Below, in pieces: positions 35,902 to 42,615 of a DNA stretch of 57,098 nt. How positions within the stretch are numbered: the first letter of the stretch is position 1; every line of letters begins with the position of its first letter. The position numbers were made by a program, and so were the translations under genes. The stretch lies in assembly GCA_049583675.1 (NCBI GenBank), contig JBAUWG010000037.1:1-57098 (forward strand), read 5' to 3'. Below the pieces are notes generated by a model. That model was not told where the DNA came from. It saw only the letters and a list, made by a program, of their open reading frames with translations, and did no database searches. This DNA is from Desulfobacterales bacterium. Its GTDB lineage: Bacteria > Desulfobacterota > Desulfobacteria > Desulfobacterales > UBA11574.

Positions 35902-36852
35902 ATGGCGAAGCGTGGGCGTCAGCGACCGAAGAAAAGTCTAAAAAAGACGAAAAAGCGCGGTATTTGGAGTACGTACCTGATACAGGCTGTTGCAGGACTC
36001 GGCATTTTGTTATTTCTGGTTGTCGTTGCCGGTGTGCTGTTGCGCCATTTCATGTCGAACAGAGATGTCGTGCCACCAATGACAAAATCCCGGGTTATCA
36101 GATCGCCCAGGTTTGAAGTCTATCCCAAAAATGATATATCGCCCCGCGAACCGCTGCCGAAAAAACCCCGCAAAGCCCTCGAAAGGTTACCCAAAATTGC
36201 CATAATTATTGATGATATCGGCTATGACAAAGCCATCGCAAATAAATTCTTGGCACTTAACGCGGTGTTAACATTTTCCATACTTCCTTACAGTCCCTAT
36301 GAGAAAAGCATTGCCAGTAGCGTTCATTCAAAAGGTTACGACGTGATGCTTCATTTGCCCATGGAGCCTGATGAGTATCCATCGATCAATCCCGGTCCCG
36401 GAGTGCTTCTGACTTCCATGACACCGGATCAACTGATCGGCCAGCTCAATGAAGACCTGGATGCTTTCCCGTTCATAACAGGGGTAAATAATCATATGGG
36501 GTCAAAAATGACGACGGTTTCTCCTCAACTCAACCAGATTTTTTCGGTGTTGAAGGGGAAAGGGCTTTTCTTTATTGACAGCCGCACCACGCCGGATACG
36601 CTTTGCAAACCATCGGCGCAGCTCTTCAAAGTTCCTTTTGCGCAAAAAGATGTCTTTATCGATCATAAACCGGAACCCGACTTTATCCGCAAACAAATCC
36701 AACGGCTCATAATGATTGCCGATAGTCATGGCGAAGCGGTCGGGATTGCGCACCCACATCCCGAAACTTATGATATCCTTCGTGAAATGCTGCCGGAGCT
36801 TCAAAAAAAGGCAACACTGGTTCGTGCATCCGATATTGTACATAATAATTAG
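35902..36852 (+). CDS. Divergent polysaccharide deacetylase family protein (YibQ-like)
   Basis: 316 aa. N-terminal TM, then the YibQ-type core (KIAIIIDDIGYD, MLHLPMEP, GVNNHMGS, FFIDSRTT). Starts 4 nt after the ctp stop. Confidence 0.8.
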   Translation: MAKRGRQRPKKSLKKTKKRGIWSTYLIQAVAGLGILLFLVVVAGVLLRHFMSNRDVVPPMTKSRVIRSPRFEVYPKNDISPREPLPKKPRKALERLPKIAIIIDDIGYDKAIANKFLALNAVLTFSILPYSPYEKSIASSVHSKGYDVMLHLPMEPDEYPSINPGPGVLLTSMTPDQLIGQLNEDLDAFPFITGVNNHMGSKMTTVSPQLNQIFSVLKGKGLFFIDSRTTPDTLCKPSAQLFKVPFAQKDVFIDHKPEPDFIRKQIQRLIMIADSHGEAVGIAHPHPETYDILREMLPELQKKATLVRASDIVHNN

Positions 36853-37083: not shown

Positions 37084-37725
37084 ATGATTAACACCCTGGC
37101 CATACACACGCGGTTGATCGATAAATTTCTTGCCTATTTGTGCGTGTGTTATGTTGCCATGGTTTTATGGGTTGATCACCTTGGAAAATTTTCCCTGCCC
37201 GCAAATCAATATCGATTCATTTTCTGGTTTTCCGTTCCCATGGGTTTTTATCTGTGGACGGTATATTCAGCAAAAAATCGCAGTGAGATTTTACACTGGC
37301 TGGATGTAAGGGCCCTCAGCCGAAAAGAATGGCACGCCGCATCCGTGCTTATGGCGGGCTTGGTGCTGGTGATTGCTGTTATTCCACTGGTTCCATCTTT
37401 GGCCGATTACTACAGGCCGGGCAGAATAAGCGTCGGCCGCCGGTTGATCTGGCTGGCGGCTTGGTTTCCCGGCTGGGAGTTGATGCATCGATGTCTTCTG
37501 GCCTATCACATTCCGCGTTCTTTGCCAAGACACGCCTGGTTGCTGATCCCTTTATTTGAAGGTCTCTATCATTTTAATAAGCCCTGGCCTGAAATGCTGG
37601 GCATGTTTGCCTGGAGCGGGGCATTGACGTTTTGGACGATCAAGCGGAAAAATGCCTGTCTGGCGATCTTGGCCCACCTGGTGCTGGAATGCTTGCTCAT
37701 CGCTTACCTGGGTTTCGGCGCTTGA
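37084..37725 (+). CDS. Polytopic membrane protein, possible divergent CPBP (CAAX-type) intramembrane protease
   Basis: 213 aa with about 6 TM helices. Weak CPBP-like motifs (GWELMHR for ExxxR, EGLYH, AILAHLVLE). The assignment is tentative. Confidence 0.4.
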   Translation: MINTLAIHTRLIDKFLAYLCVCYVAMVLWVDHLGKFSLPANQYRFIFWFSVPMGFYLWTVYSAKNRSEILHWLDVRALSRKEWHAASVLMAGLVLVIAVIPLVPSLADYYRPGRISVGRRLIWLAAWFPGWELMHRCLLAYHIPRSLPRHAWLLIPLFEGLYHFNKPWPEMLGMFAWSGALTFWTIKRKNACLAILAHLVLECLLIAYLGFGA

Positions 37726-37861: not shown

Positions 37862-39355
37862 ATGAAGAAATTTTTCAATATTTTTTTAATGACGCTGTTT
37901 TCTTTATTGTCGGCATCTCTTATCGTGGCGCATCCGCCGGCACATGCCGGGGACGTCCGAAAACCGCTATTTGCCGGCTCTTTCTACCCGGATACCGCCG
38001 AAGAACTTTCGACGGTGATTAAAAAATATGTCAGCCGGGTTAAGCCGGCCCATGTCAATCACCCGCCGGATACTTCACTCAAGGCGCTCATCATACCCCA
38101 CGCAGGATATGTCTATGCCGGATGGACGGCAGCCCATATTTCATCGGCAGTCAATGGAGATCGATCCAGAAGGATCATCGTCATGGGGCCGGACCATCGT
38201 ATCGGGTTTGAAGGATGTGCCGTCAGTGACGCGGCCGCCTGGGAAACTCCTTTGGGCCGGATTCGACTGGATCAGGGCGCCGACCGACTGCGCCAAAATA
38301 AAACCCTGTTTCAGGTGATTCCGGCGTCCGACCGGCTCGAACATTCCGTGGAAGTGGTTCTCCCGTATCTTCAGTATTTTTTTAAAAACTTTACCCTCAT
38401 CCCCGTCGTGTTCGGCCGGGGACAGGATCTGGCTGAAAAGGCGTCGGCATCCCTTGATCCTTTGTTGGATCAGGAGACTCTGATTGTGGCCAGTTCGGAT
38501 TTATCCCATTATCTGCCTTATCAGAAAGCAATTGCGAAAGATCGGGAAACCATTGAAAGCATCTTAACGCTGAATGACCGCAAATTGATAATGCGTGAGA
38601 ATGCCGCTTGCGGCAAGGTGCCGATTCTGGTTCTTATGGACATGGCCCGCCGTCACCACTGGCAGCCGGTTCTTCTTCATTATTCCAACAGCGGTGACAC
38701 CGCCGGAGATCGTTCAAGGGTTGTCGGTTATGCATCCATCGCCTTTTACGGAGGTTCATCTATGAAAGACCATGCAGATTCTATTCAATCTTTGAATGAG
38801 CGCCAGGGCCAGATACTGGTAAAACTGGCTCGGCAGACCATTGCTCAAAAGCTTGGAAAACGTTCGACCAAAGTTGATCCGGGTGCTTTAGCAGACCCGG
38901 GCTTTCAGAAAAAAAGGGGCACCTTTGTAACATTAACCATCGACAAACAGTTGCGGGGGTGCATCGGCAACTTGGATGCACGAGACTCAATTTTGGGCGG
39001 GGTCAGACGAAATGCCGTCAACGCCGCCTTCCATGACCCTCGTTTTTCCCCATTGAAAGCGGATGAACTGGACCATGTGGATATCGAAATCAGTATCCTT
39101 ACCGAACCCCGGTTCCTGGAATATCGGGACAGCAACGAATTGATTTCCAAATTGCGCGTTCATGTCGATGGGGTTATTCTTCAAAAAGGATCAGCCGGCG
39201 CCACCTTTTTACCCCAGGTGTGGGAGCAGTTGCCGAAGCCTGAAGATTTTCTTTCCCATCTTTGCATGAAAGCAGGACTGCCCGCCGACACCTGGAGAAA
39301 GGAACATCTCGATGTTTCGACTTACCAGGTTCAATATTTTGAAGAGGAGAAATGA
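37862..39355 (+). CDS. Fusion of AmmeMemoRadiSam system protein B (Memo-like) and protein A (AMMECR1) with N-terminal Sec-type signal peptide
   Basis: 497 aa. Signal MKKFFNIFLMTLFSLLSASLIVAHPPAHA|G. Memo motifs PHAGYVYAG, MGPDHR, LEHSVEV, SSDLSHY and ACGKVP. From about nt 38760, the AMMECR1 motifs GTFVTLTIDKQLRGCIGN and ATFLPQVWEQL. Confidence 0.85.
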   Translation: MKKFFNIFLMTLFSLLSASLIVAHPPAHAGDVRKPLFAGSFYPDTAEELSTVIKKYVSRVKPAHVNHPPDTSLKALIIPHAGYVYAGWTAAHISSAVNGDRSRRIIVMGPDHRIGFEGCAVSDAAAWETPLGRIRLDQGADRLRQNKTLFQVIPASDRLEHSVEVVLPYLQYFFKNFTLIPVVFGRGQDLAEKASASLDPLLDQETLIVASSDLSHYLPYQKAIAKDRETIESILTLNDRKLIMRENAACGKVPILVLMDMARRHHWQPVLLHYSNSGDTAGDRSRVVGYASIAFYGGSSMKDHADSIQSLNERQGQILVKLARQTIAQKLGKRSTKVDPGALADPGFQKKRGTFVTLTIDKQLRGCIGNLDARDSILGGVRRNAVNAAFHDPRFSPLKADELDHVDIEISILTEPRFLEYRDSNELISKLRVHVDGVILQKGSAGATFLPQVWEQLPKPEDFLSHLCMKAGLPADTWRKEHLDVSTYQVQYFEEEK

Positions 39356-41447
39356 ACATGTAGTAACACGGGTGATCATCGCTACCGGTGTCTCGTCCGT
39401 AGTGACCCAGTTATTGATCATTCGTGAATTTCTGGCCCAGTTCCAGGGGAACGAGTTTGTTATCGCCCTGATTCTCTTCAACTGGCTTATTTTGGGCGGA
39501 ATCGGCACGATTTTATCCCGCAGAATCACTCGAAACTTATGGGCCGCCACCGCAACCCGGCTGGGCTGGCTCTCTTTTCTTTTGGCGGGGTTGCCCGGTG
39601 TTCAGATCATAGCCATCCGGTATCTTCGCGATATCTTTTTCATCCATGGAAGTTCCGTCGGGTTCTATCCCTTTTTAATCTATTCCTTCCTGATCACCGC
39701 CCCCTATTGCCTGATGATCGGTTTTGTTCTCCCTTACAGTCTTTTCGTCATCAGAACGTCGAATGCCGACTATCCCGGCGCACTGATTTATATATCGGAT
39801 AATTTGGGAGATGTTTCCGGCGGGGCCTTGTTTTCCTTTGTCCTGGTTTTTTGGGTTTCTCCGATGACCGCCGTATTTCTGGCCAACCTGCCGTTGCTAT
39901 TGTCCGCAATCCTGCTCTTTCATCATTTTTCCGGGGGTCGTCTTTCGGTCTATTTAGGAGCAGCCGCAACGATAGTCGTGCTGGGGGCCGGGATATTTTT
40001 AGAGCCGGCATCACTGGTTTTGCCTGAAGGCAAGCTGGCCTATTACAGTGAATCCCGATATGGCCGGATCCAGGTTTTGCAAAATCAGGAACAATATACG
40101 CTGTTCCTTGGGGGCGCCCCGTTGTTCAGCAGCCAGAATTTGAGCATGGCCGAAGAAACCATCCATTATCCCTTGTCGCAAGTGGATACGGCACGAAATA
40201 TTCTTTTGATCTCCGCCCAAGGCGGTATAATGACCGAACTTGAAAAATATCGTTCGGTGTCCGTTGATTATGTGGAACTGGATCCGAAAGTCGCGGATGT
40301 TGAATTCAGGTTCGGATTGATCAAAAAAATTCCAGGGCTTGCAATCATTCACCAAGATGGAAGGGCGTATCTGGAGAAATCGAACAAAATCTATGATGCC
40401 ATTATCGTGAACCTGAGTGAACCGGATACGTTTCAAATCAACAGATTCTATACCGATCGATTTTTTGCGCTGGCCCGGCGTCACCTGGGCCAACATGGGG
40501 TGTTGAGTTTTGCCATGGAGGGATTCGACAATTACCTGGCTGAACCCCAGAGACAGAAGCTTTCTTCGTTATATAATACGGTCTGCGATTATTTTAGCCA
40601 TGTGCTGTTGCTGCCGGGAGAAAAAATTTTTTTCCTTTGCGGTTCCCGGCCCATCAATACCGATATCCCGAAAATTCTAAATCAAAAAGGGATTTCAACG
40701 CGATATATCAGCGGATACTATTACGGAGATGTGACCCCTGAAAGAATCGAGCGGTTAAACGCGCTCATCGACCCAAAGACGCCCAAAAACTTAGATGATG
40801 CCCCCCAACTCATGCATCTCATGTTTTTGCAATGGTTTGCAAAGTTTTCCACTTCCCCGACCGGCTTCATGGTGGTTTTGGCGCTGTTTTGTACGGTCTA
40901 CCTTTTTCGTCTCCATTCGGAAGAATTTGTTCTTTTTTCCACCGGATTTATGGTCATGGGAAGTGAGATCCTGGTAATATTTGCTTTTCAAATTTTTTTC
41001 GGATATATTTATTTTCAAATCGGCCTGATCGTCACTGTTTTTCTGGCCGGTCTTTTGCCCGGCGCCTGGCTCGGGGATAGACTCAGAAAGAGAAGCAAAC
41101 AGATCCTCATGTTCACCGACGGCCTCCTGATCGTTTTCATGGGGCTGCTGATGGCAGCACTCAAGCAGGCCGGACATCATCTGCCGGTGACGGCTTACCT
41201 GGTTTTCGGATTTTTCGTTTCACTGATTTGCGGTTTTCAGTTTCCGGTGGCACTCTACGTAAGAGGCGGAGATGCTTCTGCGGTGACGCAGACCTTTTCT
41301 GCGGATCTTATCGGGGCGGCTTTCGGCACATTGATCGCCAGTGTCGTCCTGATTCCTTATTTCGGCATTATCTGGACGGCGGCCGGCCTGATCGGGCTTA
41401 AGCTTTTGAGTTTAACGGTGACCTATTTAAGTTATGAAAACGTTTAG
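39312..41447 (+). CDS. Fused polytopic membrane / spermidine synthase-like protein
   Basis: 711 aa. About 7 N-terminal and about 6 C-terminal TM helices flank a SpeE-fold domain (ILLISAQGGIMTELE, VDYVELDPKV, DAIIVNLSEPDTFQINRFYTDRFF). The start is either ATG 39312 (44-nt overlap with the upstream gene) or in-frame GTG 39372. Confidence 0.75.
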   Translation: MFRLTRFNILKRRNEHVVTRVIIATGVSSVVTQLLIIREFLAQFQGNEFVIALILFNWLILGGIGTILSRRITRNLWAATATRLGWLSFLLAGLPGVQIIAIRYLRDIFFIHGSSVGFYPFLIYSFLITAPYCLMIGFVLPYSLFVIRTSNADYPGALIYISDNLGDVSGGALFSFVLVFWVSPMTAVFLANLPLLLSAILLFHHFSGGRLSVYLGAAATIVVLGAGIFLEPASLVLPEGKLAYYSESRYGRIQVLQNQEQYTLFLGGAPLFSSQNLSMAEETIHYPLSQVDTARNILLISAQGGIMTELEKYRSVSVDYVELDPKVADVEFRFGLIKKIPGLAIIHQDGRAYLEKSNKIYDAIIVNLSEPDTFQINRFYTDRFFALARRHLGQHGVLSFAMEGFDNYLAEPQRQKLSSLYNTVCDYFSHVLLLPGEKIFFLCGSRPINTDIPKILNQKGISTRYISGYYYGDVTPERIERLNALIDPKTPKNLDDAPQLMHLMFLQWFAKFSTSPTGFMVVLALFCTVYLFRLHSEEFVLFSTGFMVMGSEILVIFAFQIFFGYIYFQIGLIVTVFLAGLLPGAWLGDRLRKRSKQILMFTDGLLIVFMGLLMAALKQAGHHLPVTAYLVFGFFVSLICGFQFPVALYVRGGDASAVTQTFSADLIGAAFGTLIASVVLIPYFGIIWTAAGLIGLKLLSLTVTYLSYENV

Positions 41448-42615
41448 CCGACGTCAATTTCTGTATTGCGGTGCGGGGCTTTTCTGCAGCGCCGTATCCG
41501 CCCAGGCATTCTGGCCGTTTTCCAAAAAAACAGGCATGGCAGCCGGACCGGCCGATATCCGCGGGCATGTCTTCAAAGGGGATGCGCCCGAGACATTGTG
41601 GAAATGGTCCCGTGAGGGATTTTTATATACAAAACTGGATAACAAACTGGTGCTTTGCGGTATCTGCCCGAACAGATGCCTTTTATCTCCCGGAGACCGA
41701 AGTGTTTGCCGTTCCAAGGTCAATATGGACGGCATTCTATACAGCTTGACCTACGGCAATCCTTGCAGCGTGAACGTGGATCCCATTGAAAAAAAACCGC
41801 TGTATCATTTCAAGCCGCGGTCAAATGCCTTTTCCATTGCCACTGCCGGCTGCAACTTCCGCTGTCTGAACTGCCAGAACTGGGAAATCTCTCAAGCCAA
41901 ACCGAACGAGGTTCGGCATTACGAACTTTTTCCGGCAGATGTCGTTAAAGCCGCACAGCAAAGCAAATGCCTGTCCATTGCATACACCTATTCGGAGGCG
42001 GTGACATTTTTTGAATATATGATCGACACCGCACGACTGGCCAGAGAAAGCGGTGTCTTCAATTTGTGGATTTCAAACGGTTATATCAACCGGGAACCGC
42101 TGCTGGCGCTCTGCAAGGTGCTGGATGCCGCCAATGTCAATCTCAAATCTTACAGCGACGCCATCTATCGAAAACTGAACGGCGGCCGGCTTCAGCCGGT
42201 GCTGGATACCTTTAAAACCCTGCGCGAACAAGGGGTCCATTTTGAAATGACAAATCTGGTGGTTCCCGGTTATGTGGATGACGATGATATGGTCAAAAAG
42301 ATGTGCGGATGGATTCTTGAAAACCTGGGCCCGGATTATCCCCTTCATTTTTTGCGGTTTTTTCCTAAATATAAACTTGATCGCCTGCCTTCGACCCCGG
42401 TCTCAACCCTGGTTCGATTCCGTAAACTGGCCATGTCGCAAGGCATCCATTATGTCTATGTGGGAAACGCTGCCTATCCCGAAGGAAACAACACCTATTG
42501 CCACCACTGCAAAAAATTGCTGATTGAACGGGCCGGTTATTTCATCCCGACCTACAACCTGGATGAGAATCGATGCAAGTTCTGCAAAACGCTGATTCCC
42601 GGCCGGTGGGAGTGA
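41434..42615 (+). CDS. amrS: AmmeMemoRadiSam system radical SAM enzyme with twin-arginine signal-like N-terminus
   Basis: 393 aa. N-terminus MKTFSRRQFLYCGAGLFCSAVSAQA|F. Cys-rich LCGICPNRCLLSPGDRSVCRSK. Radical SAM CX3CX2C motif in ATAGCNFRCLNCQNWEIS. 14-nt overlap with the upstream gene. Confidence 0.85.
   Translation: MKTFSRRQFLYCGAGLFCSAVSAQAFWPFSKKTGMAAGPADIRGHVFKGDAPETLWKWSREGFLYTKLDNKLVLCGICPNRCLLSPGDRSVCRSKVNMDGILYSLTYGNPCSVNVDPIEKKPLYHFKPRSNAFSIATAGCNFRCLNCQNWEISQAKPNEVRHYELFPADVVKAAQQSKCLSIAYTYSEAVTFFEYMIDTARLARESGVFNLWISNGYINREPLLALCKVLDAANVNLKSYSDAIYRKLNGGRLQPVLDTFKTLREQGVHFEMTNLVVPGYVDDDDMVKKMCGWILENLGPDYPLHFLRFFPKYKLDRLPSTPVSTLVRFRKLAMSQGIHYVYVGNAAYPEGNNTYCHHCKKLLIERAGYFIPTYNLDENRCKFCKTLIPGRWE

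Follow-up and report, generated by a model that had tools for sequence, protein, structure and literature searches.

Can a radical SAM enzyme, which needs S-adenosylmethionine (SAM) and a strong reductant, work outside the cytoplasm? To our knowledge, such enzymes are treated as strictly cytoplasmic given these two needs, and our literature search found no description of a radical SAM enzyme that bears a twin-arginine translocation (Tat) signal or acts in the periplasm. The question is raised by a stretch of 57,098 nucleotides (nt) from a Desulfobacterales bacterium (contig JBAUWG010000037.1 of assembly GCA_049583675.1; "the window" means this whole stretch). On its forward strand, an open reading frame (ORF) of 393 amino acids at 41434-42615 encodes AmrS, the radical SAM enzyme of the AmmeMemoRadiSam system (TIGR04337), with what reads as a Tat signal at its N-terminus. 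A first-pass annotation had rightly named the resulting paradox, a SAM-dependent enzyme that bears an export signal. In the explanation that best fits the evidence gathered here, this AmrS would supply the radical SAM subunit to a variant AmmeMemoRadiSam system located in the cell envelope.

The twin-arginine signal of AmrS and its start codon

Judged by its sequence, the region of residues 1-25 (MKTFSRRQFLYCGAGLFCSAVSAQA, translated from the bases at 41434..41508, plus strand) forms a complete Tat-type signal. It consists of an n-region, MKTFSRRQF, with R6 and R7 encoded at 41449-41454 (plus strand), an h-region, LYCGAGLFCSAV, and a c-region, SAQA, with an AxA site at residues 23-25. The twin-arginine consensus (S/T-R-R-x-F-L-K) is present as S5-R6-R7-Q8-F9-L10. 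We compared AmrS with its best 120 database homologues, which are 74-100% identical to it and 116 of which are full length. Among these 116, R6, R7, and F9 never vary, position 10 is always L or I, and the AxA alanines are kept in most (A23 in 94/116, A25 in 98/116). Such conservation points to selection on the whole n-h-c layout, AxA site included, and the conserved AxA favors cleavage over a permanent anchor. The claim of a Tat signal on an AmrS-type radical SAM enzyme is thus borne out, and the extension is present in all of the full-length close homologues. Two cysteines of the h-region, C12 and C18 (residues 12 to 18 lie at 41467-41487), are also conserved, in 108/116 and 85/116 homologues respectively, which is unusual for a cleaved leader.

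Could the start of AmrS have been mis-called, so that translation begins downstream and the "signal" is an untranslated leader? Four database entries (P0025, P0046, P0056, and P0118) do begin at internal codons and are shorter than the others. The candidate internal start, Met35, is a methionine in just 23/116 homologues, and the protein sequence encoded by the 5' part is itself conserved, its arginine pair and F9 being invariant; together these rule out Met35 as the start. A longer ORF is ruled out as well, because an in-frame TAA at 41428-41430, one codon 5' of the ATG, means that the ORF cannot begin further upstream. The start overlaps the 3' end of the preceding SpeE-like gene by 14 nt, and a comparable overlap is shared by a relative (locus L070). 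Altogether, we consider a mis-called start extremely improbable; the internal start that the first-pass annotation had raised against its own reading was not found.

What does the signal precede? The annotation had placed it directly in front of the Cys-rich domain. The order is right, but a 39-residue linker lies between the two (residues 26-64, 41509..41625, plus strand; FWPF...DIRGxVFKGDAP..LWKWS.EG). This linker, which falls outside the TIGR04337 model and for which no structure is predicted, is kept among close homologues. An AlphaFold model, built on a shallow 34-row alignment with a mean predicted local distance difference test score (pLDDT) of 67.9 and used solely for the disordered N-terminus, has a short helix at residues 6-17 and a pLDDT below 50 across residues 11-64. 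Both features are consistent with the leader and linker being free of contacts with the core.

The core itself is that of a bona fide family member. The ORF scores 349.9 bits against the TIGR04337 profile (cut-off 220), and the match covers residues 65-393 only, which with the stop codon occupy 41626..42615 (plus strand); PF04055 matches residues 136-284. Within the core are an N-terminal Cys4 motif (C75, C78, C82, and C92), the radical SAM CX3CX2C motif (C140, C144, and C147 in CNFRCLNC, residues 140-147; nt 41851-41874, plus strand), and a C-terminal Cys4 motif (C356, C359, C381, and C384). All three motifs are 95-100% conserved in both the signal-less clade and the signal-bearing, or envelope, clade described below. 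Residues that are near-invariant in the signal-less clade are retained in the envelope clade, and the catalytic residues of the window AmrS are intact. It deviates at six near-invariant family positions (G90S, R95K, G129R, P189A, D236N, and N281V), and part of these deviant states are common to its close homologues. By sequence, the closest solved structure is pyruvate formate-lyase activase 3c8f (E=3.4e-10), with the likeness spanning residues 138-300. Unlike AmrS, that activating enzyme is cytoplasmic and has neither the two Cys4 motifs nor a signal. For the AmrS family, our literature search found no report of SAM cleavage activity.

A separate branch of the AmrS family and its partners

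Which AmrS proteins carry the RR extension, as the first-pass annotation had asked? TIGR04337 is widespread, being present in 284/301 sampled genomes of the phylum, often in more than one copy. A twin-arginine leader pattern stands at the N-terminus of 31 among the best 150 cluster representatives, and an RR or KR leader precedes the AmrS core in 34/40 retrieved loci, these being the loci with long open frames. In a tree of 188 AmrS cores, one branch of 87 rows takes in every row with an export-like N-terminus (69 rows), 11 of the 12 long fusions, and 7 signal-less rows, while none of the remaining 101 rows has an export-like N-terminus. Support for the branch is 89 by the Shimodaira-Hasegawa-like approximate likelihood ratio test, below the starred level. 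Within this sample, every AmrS with a signal lies apart from the canonical form that lacks one. The genome studied here contains both forms: it has a second AmrS, of 347 amino acids, and a second Memo, neither with a signal. A cytoplasmic role for AmrS is already covered by the second copy.

The partners of the signal-bearing AmrS also carry export signals. Upstream lies a 497-amino-acid fusion of Memo (AmrB; TIGR04336 from residue 33) and AMMECR1 (AmrA; TIGR04335 at 318-493), encoded at 37862..39355 (plus strand). It begins with a signal of the general secretory (Sec) type, MKKFFNIFLMTLFSLLSASLIVAHPPAHA|GD (nt 37862-37948, plus strand). The h-region of the AmrS signal has a KD12 of 1.69, versus 2.32 for this Sec signal. 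The difference extends to relatives: the N-terminus of Memo-AMMECR1 proteins beside envelope-type AmrS is strongly hydrophobic in every case found, and the median KD12 is 2.55 for Memo-AMMECR1 leaders (n=16) versus 1.72 for AmrS leaders (n=35; Mann-Whitney p=1.5e-7, a value inflated by sequence kinship). An iron-sulfur (FeS) protein with a Tat-type leader beside an FeS-free partner with a Sec-type leader is the division expected if both are truly exported. The signal-bearing fusion is also the sole TIGR04335 (AMMECR1) match in this genome, which is 86% complete.

Between the fusion and AmrS lies a gene for a polytopic SpeE-like membrane protein of 711 amino acids (39312..41447, plus strand; PF01564, PRK03612). 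It has about 7 transmembrane (TM) helices, a soluble SpeE-fold domain at residues 231-514, and then 6-7 further TM helices. We applied the positive-inside rule with a crude hydropathy count, both to the single sequence and to 10 homologues. Averaged over these 10, the inside loops total about 9 K+R and the outside loops about 1, and the domain at 231-514 is predicted to face the periplasm. SpeE-like genes adjoin envelope-type AmrS in 19/40 loci and canonical AmrS in 0/18; for Memo-AMMECR1 the counts are 16/40 and 0/18.

The signal-less members of the branch might seem to be exceptions. A strict co-variation, in which a Tat signal on AmrS always goes with a signal on Memo, was rejected, as five envelope-clade loci (L052, L054, L056, L058, and L059) pair an AmrS without its own leader with a signal-bearing Memo. 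However, in all of these but L056, a small ORF with an RRxF motif and a hydrophobic stretch lies between amrS and memo (L052:6349-6633, L058:8724-8909, and L059:8713-8994, minus strand; L054:10006-10212, plus strand), so that a separate twin-arginine ORF explains four of the five exceptions. The AmrS proteins of these four loci start at the second beta-strand, and the C-termini of the small ORFs (KRAMFSRKT, KRAMFTRKV, RPALFSRRV, and KADFWRKGD) resemble the missing first strand (EA-x-F-Y/W-x-K), as well as the fused sister P0147 (RPAQFFRTR). This suggests that the small ORF may encode a detached leader, which would dock onto AmrS by strand complementation and take it through the Tat pathway.

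Long fusions in the family give further context. In P0124 and P0137, a single TM helix at the N-terminus is followed by an FMN_bind domain and then by AmrS, without a further TM helix. In both, the FMN_bind domain carries the ApbE flavinylation motif D-x-x-[ST]-G-A-T (DTVSGAT and DAVSGAT, respectively), and the flavinylated FMN-binding domains characterized so far are extracytosolic (PMC8238504). Across P0124, P0137, P0146, P0148, P0127, P0123, and P0125, AmrS is variously fused to FMN_bind, Fer4_5/NapH-like, and DsbD_2 modules, which look like built-in electron supply lines. These modules are counterparts of the flavinylated extracytosolic modules (FMN_bind, NapH-like, and DsbD) described by Meheust et al. 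2021 (PMC8238504), although the window operon itself has no flavinylated electron-transfer module. Partners of the radical SAM, Memo, or AMMECR1 kinds go unmentioned in that paper, and the portion of its supplement available to us lists only unrelated radical SAM genes. For the NosR-like and DsbD_2 fusions, crude TM counts leave the side of the membrane ambiguous, and we do not count these fusions as proof that AmrS lies outside.

Where AmrS may act

The machinery for export is present in the genome. It includes TatC (232.5 bits), two TatA/E genes, one of which adjoins tatC, and signal peptidase I. We also searched for other Tat-like proteins with a loose pattern (RR-x-hydrophobic-hydrophobic plus an uncharged hydrophobic stretch, no more than 30 residues from a start), which matches 30/3605 genome frames of at least 150 amino acids. 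Those that Pfam identifies include a [NiFe] hydrogenase small subunit, a HybA-like ferredoxin, and two molybdopterin oxidoreductases. The leaders of these Tat-like FeS proteins closely resemble that of AmrS, and like AmrS, Tat-exported proteins of these kinds set an S/T-R-R-x-F-L leader before a cofactor-bearing passenger. However, the cofactors of such proteins need no diffusible co-substrate, whereas a radical SAM enzyme normally consumes SAM. The Pfam-identified matches also include a cluster of four successive genes with Tat-like leaders (L075, at G000:C533:1119-7749), which encode two aldo/keto reductases, a DUF362 protein, and a polyferredoxin.

How might an exported AmrS work? In the reading that we prefer, AmrS would fold and receive its iron-sulfur clusters in the cytoplasm, and the Tat translocase would then export it by means of the S-R-R-Q-F-L signal. 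Cleavage after A23-Q-A25, probably by signal peptidase I, would follow. Once at the periplasmic face, AmrS would act together with the Memo-AMMECR1 fusion, which would have left through Sec, and with the outward SpeE-like domain. We infer export, cleavage, and catalysis outside the cytoplasm, and we regard this route as a whole as somewhat better than an even prospect. The substrate would probably be an envelope or membrane component. The enzyme might bring its SAM along as a bound molecule and regenerate it every cycle, as lysine 2,3-aminomutase does; SAM might be handed over by the outward SpeE-fold domain; or it might be used a single time, before export. Electrons could come from periplasmic hydrogenase or cytochrome chains, and the periplasms of sulfate reducers contain low-potential cytochromes. 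The first-pass annotation expected no low-potential reductant outside the cytoplasm, but one is not implausible here, given the Tat-signal [NiFe] hydrogenase small subunit and molybdopterin oxidoreductases of this genome and the relatives fused to FMN_bind, NapH-like, or DsbD_2 modules. A more specific version is speculative, and we think it unlikely in its full form: periplasmic radical SAM catalysis in which the SpeE-like protein, with a binding fold of the SAM or decarboxylated-SAM type set between two transporter-like TM bundles and turned outward, would provide or retain the adenosyl co-substrate, with electrons from periplasmic hydrogenase or cytochromes or, in relatives, from the fused FMN, NapH-like, or DsbD_2 modules.

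Several points weigh against an exported, working AmrS. We know of no SAM pool or SAM exporter in the periplasm, and the window operon encodes no electron conduit. Generic Tat-signal hidden Markov models (HMMs) fall below their cut-offs for AmrS; PF10518 reaches 12.1 bits against a cut-off of 22.7, and TIGR01409 gives no match to the N-terminus. However, such short models are insensitive, which makes these results uninformative rather than negative. In P0136 and P0139, Sec-like leaders stand before the FeS domain and are hard to square with export of a folded FeS protein, and in the NosR-like fusions P0146 and P0148, the AmrS domain may be cytoplasmic.

In the alternatives to this reading, AmrS stays tethered or does its chemistry inside. 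The first-pass annotation offered two ways out, work in the periplasm and an uncleaved anchor. The former gains from the Sec signal on Memo-AMMECR1, the outward SpeE-like domain, and the kept AxA site, while that site speaks against the latter. As in Rieske proteins, the leader could be a Tat-inserted, uncleaved N-terminal anchor that holds AmrS at the outer face of the inner membrane by the SpeE-like protein. The Rieske Tat-signal model PF10399 is the best HMM match of the AmrS N-terminus (residues 4-29, E=1.6e-4), conservation of h-region residues, C12 and C18 among them, is unusually high, and the SpeE-like partner is a membrane protein. Yet the PF10399 score of 21.5 bits is under the cut-off of 24, the alanines at -3 and -1 are kept as noted above, and signal peptidase I is present, and we consider such an anchor unlikely. 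It would in any case alter tethering only and not the compartment: the catalytic domain would be periplasmic even if anchored, so that the SAM problem stays and the anchor is no way out of it.

The leader might alternatively not serve export at all. It could be a remnant that is vestigial or binds a chaperone, as in NarG, or could tether AmrS peripherally to the membrane, with AmrS acting in the cytoplasm. SAM and the usual reductants are found there, the amrS genes of the five signal-less loci encode no signal, and all characterized radical SAM enzymes known to us act there, among them the HXS maturases, from which the product goes on to be exported (PMC13128918). We nevertheless find a cytoplasmic AmrS improbable, as selection maintains the n-h-c architecture in full along with the AxA site, the partners bear export signals of their own, signal-less relatives have a separate small twin-arginine ORF, and the second, signal-less AmrS already fills the cytoplasmic role. 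Still less likely in our estimation is an AmrS that is exported after carrying out its SAM step once in the cytoplasm, on itself or on bound cargo, and that then serves outside as an FeS or scaffold subunit without SAM turnover. This would resolve the SAM problem, would suit a pathway that exports only folded, cofactor-loaded proteins, and would fit the relationship of AmrS to glycyl-radical activases, which act on partner proteins. However, no cargo is evident, and the fusion of relatives to electron-supply modules suggests ongoing redox turnover. The catalytic residues are all under selection, which also speaks against it, though this does not tell the site of action.

How does an exported AmrS compare with systems already described? 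We know of no function assigned to the canonical AmmeMemoRadiSam system, which comprises AmrS (TIGR04337), Memo-like protein B (TIGR04336), and AMMECR1-like protein A (TIGR04335). The window operon has the same three domains, and its AmrS retains the family-invariant cysteines and other residues. In contrast to the canonical system, AmrS here has a 64-residue extension that includes the Tat signal, Memo and AMMECR1 are fused and Sec-signaled, and a polytopic SpeE-like gene lies between the fusion and AmrS. Contexts that combine Memo, AMMECR1, and a radical SAM enzyme have reportedly been linked, in 2019 work by Burroughs et al. in the Journal of Biological Chemistry, to nucleotide base and isoprenoid modification. 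Radical SAM maturases with an exported product offer another comparison, and QhpD acting on QhpC is one of them. HxsB/HxsC acting on HxsA is a further case of radical SAM chemistry that serves a periplasmic function, as proposed for AmrS, but it follows the known pattern in which the maturase stays cytoplasmic and the product is exported (PMC13128918), whereas the window AmrS itself bears the signal.

If AmrS export proves true, the envelope clade would be a large, old subfamily built for export. It would represent either SAM-radical chemistry outside the cytoplasm or an unrecognized use of the Tat pathway, and either would be new. It would also offer a way into the biochemical function of the Memo and AMMECR1 proteins, whose conservation reaches as far as humans: placing them in the envelope would narrow the possible substrates to membrane or envelope molecules.

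Neighboring genes

Two further genes upstream of the fusion are conserved neighbors, a Polysacc_deac_2 protein (35902-36852, plus strand) and a membrane protein of 213 amino acids with a weak Rce1/CPBP-like match (37084-37725, plus strand). The operon order, including these upstream neighbors, is wholly kept in the relative L070 (85% identity). In L069 and L071, both at about 76% identity, Tat-AmrS is a lone gene, beside FtrD-like and MacB-type ABC genes in the former and beside rhodanese and MauE/DoxX genes in the latter, which indicates that the operon link to Memo-AMMECR1 is not fixed. DUF362 proteins, some with Tat leaders of their own, recur in 7 AmrS loci.

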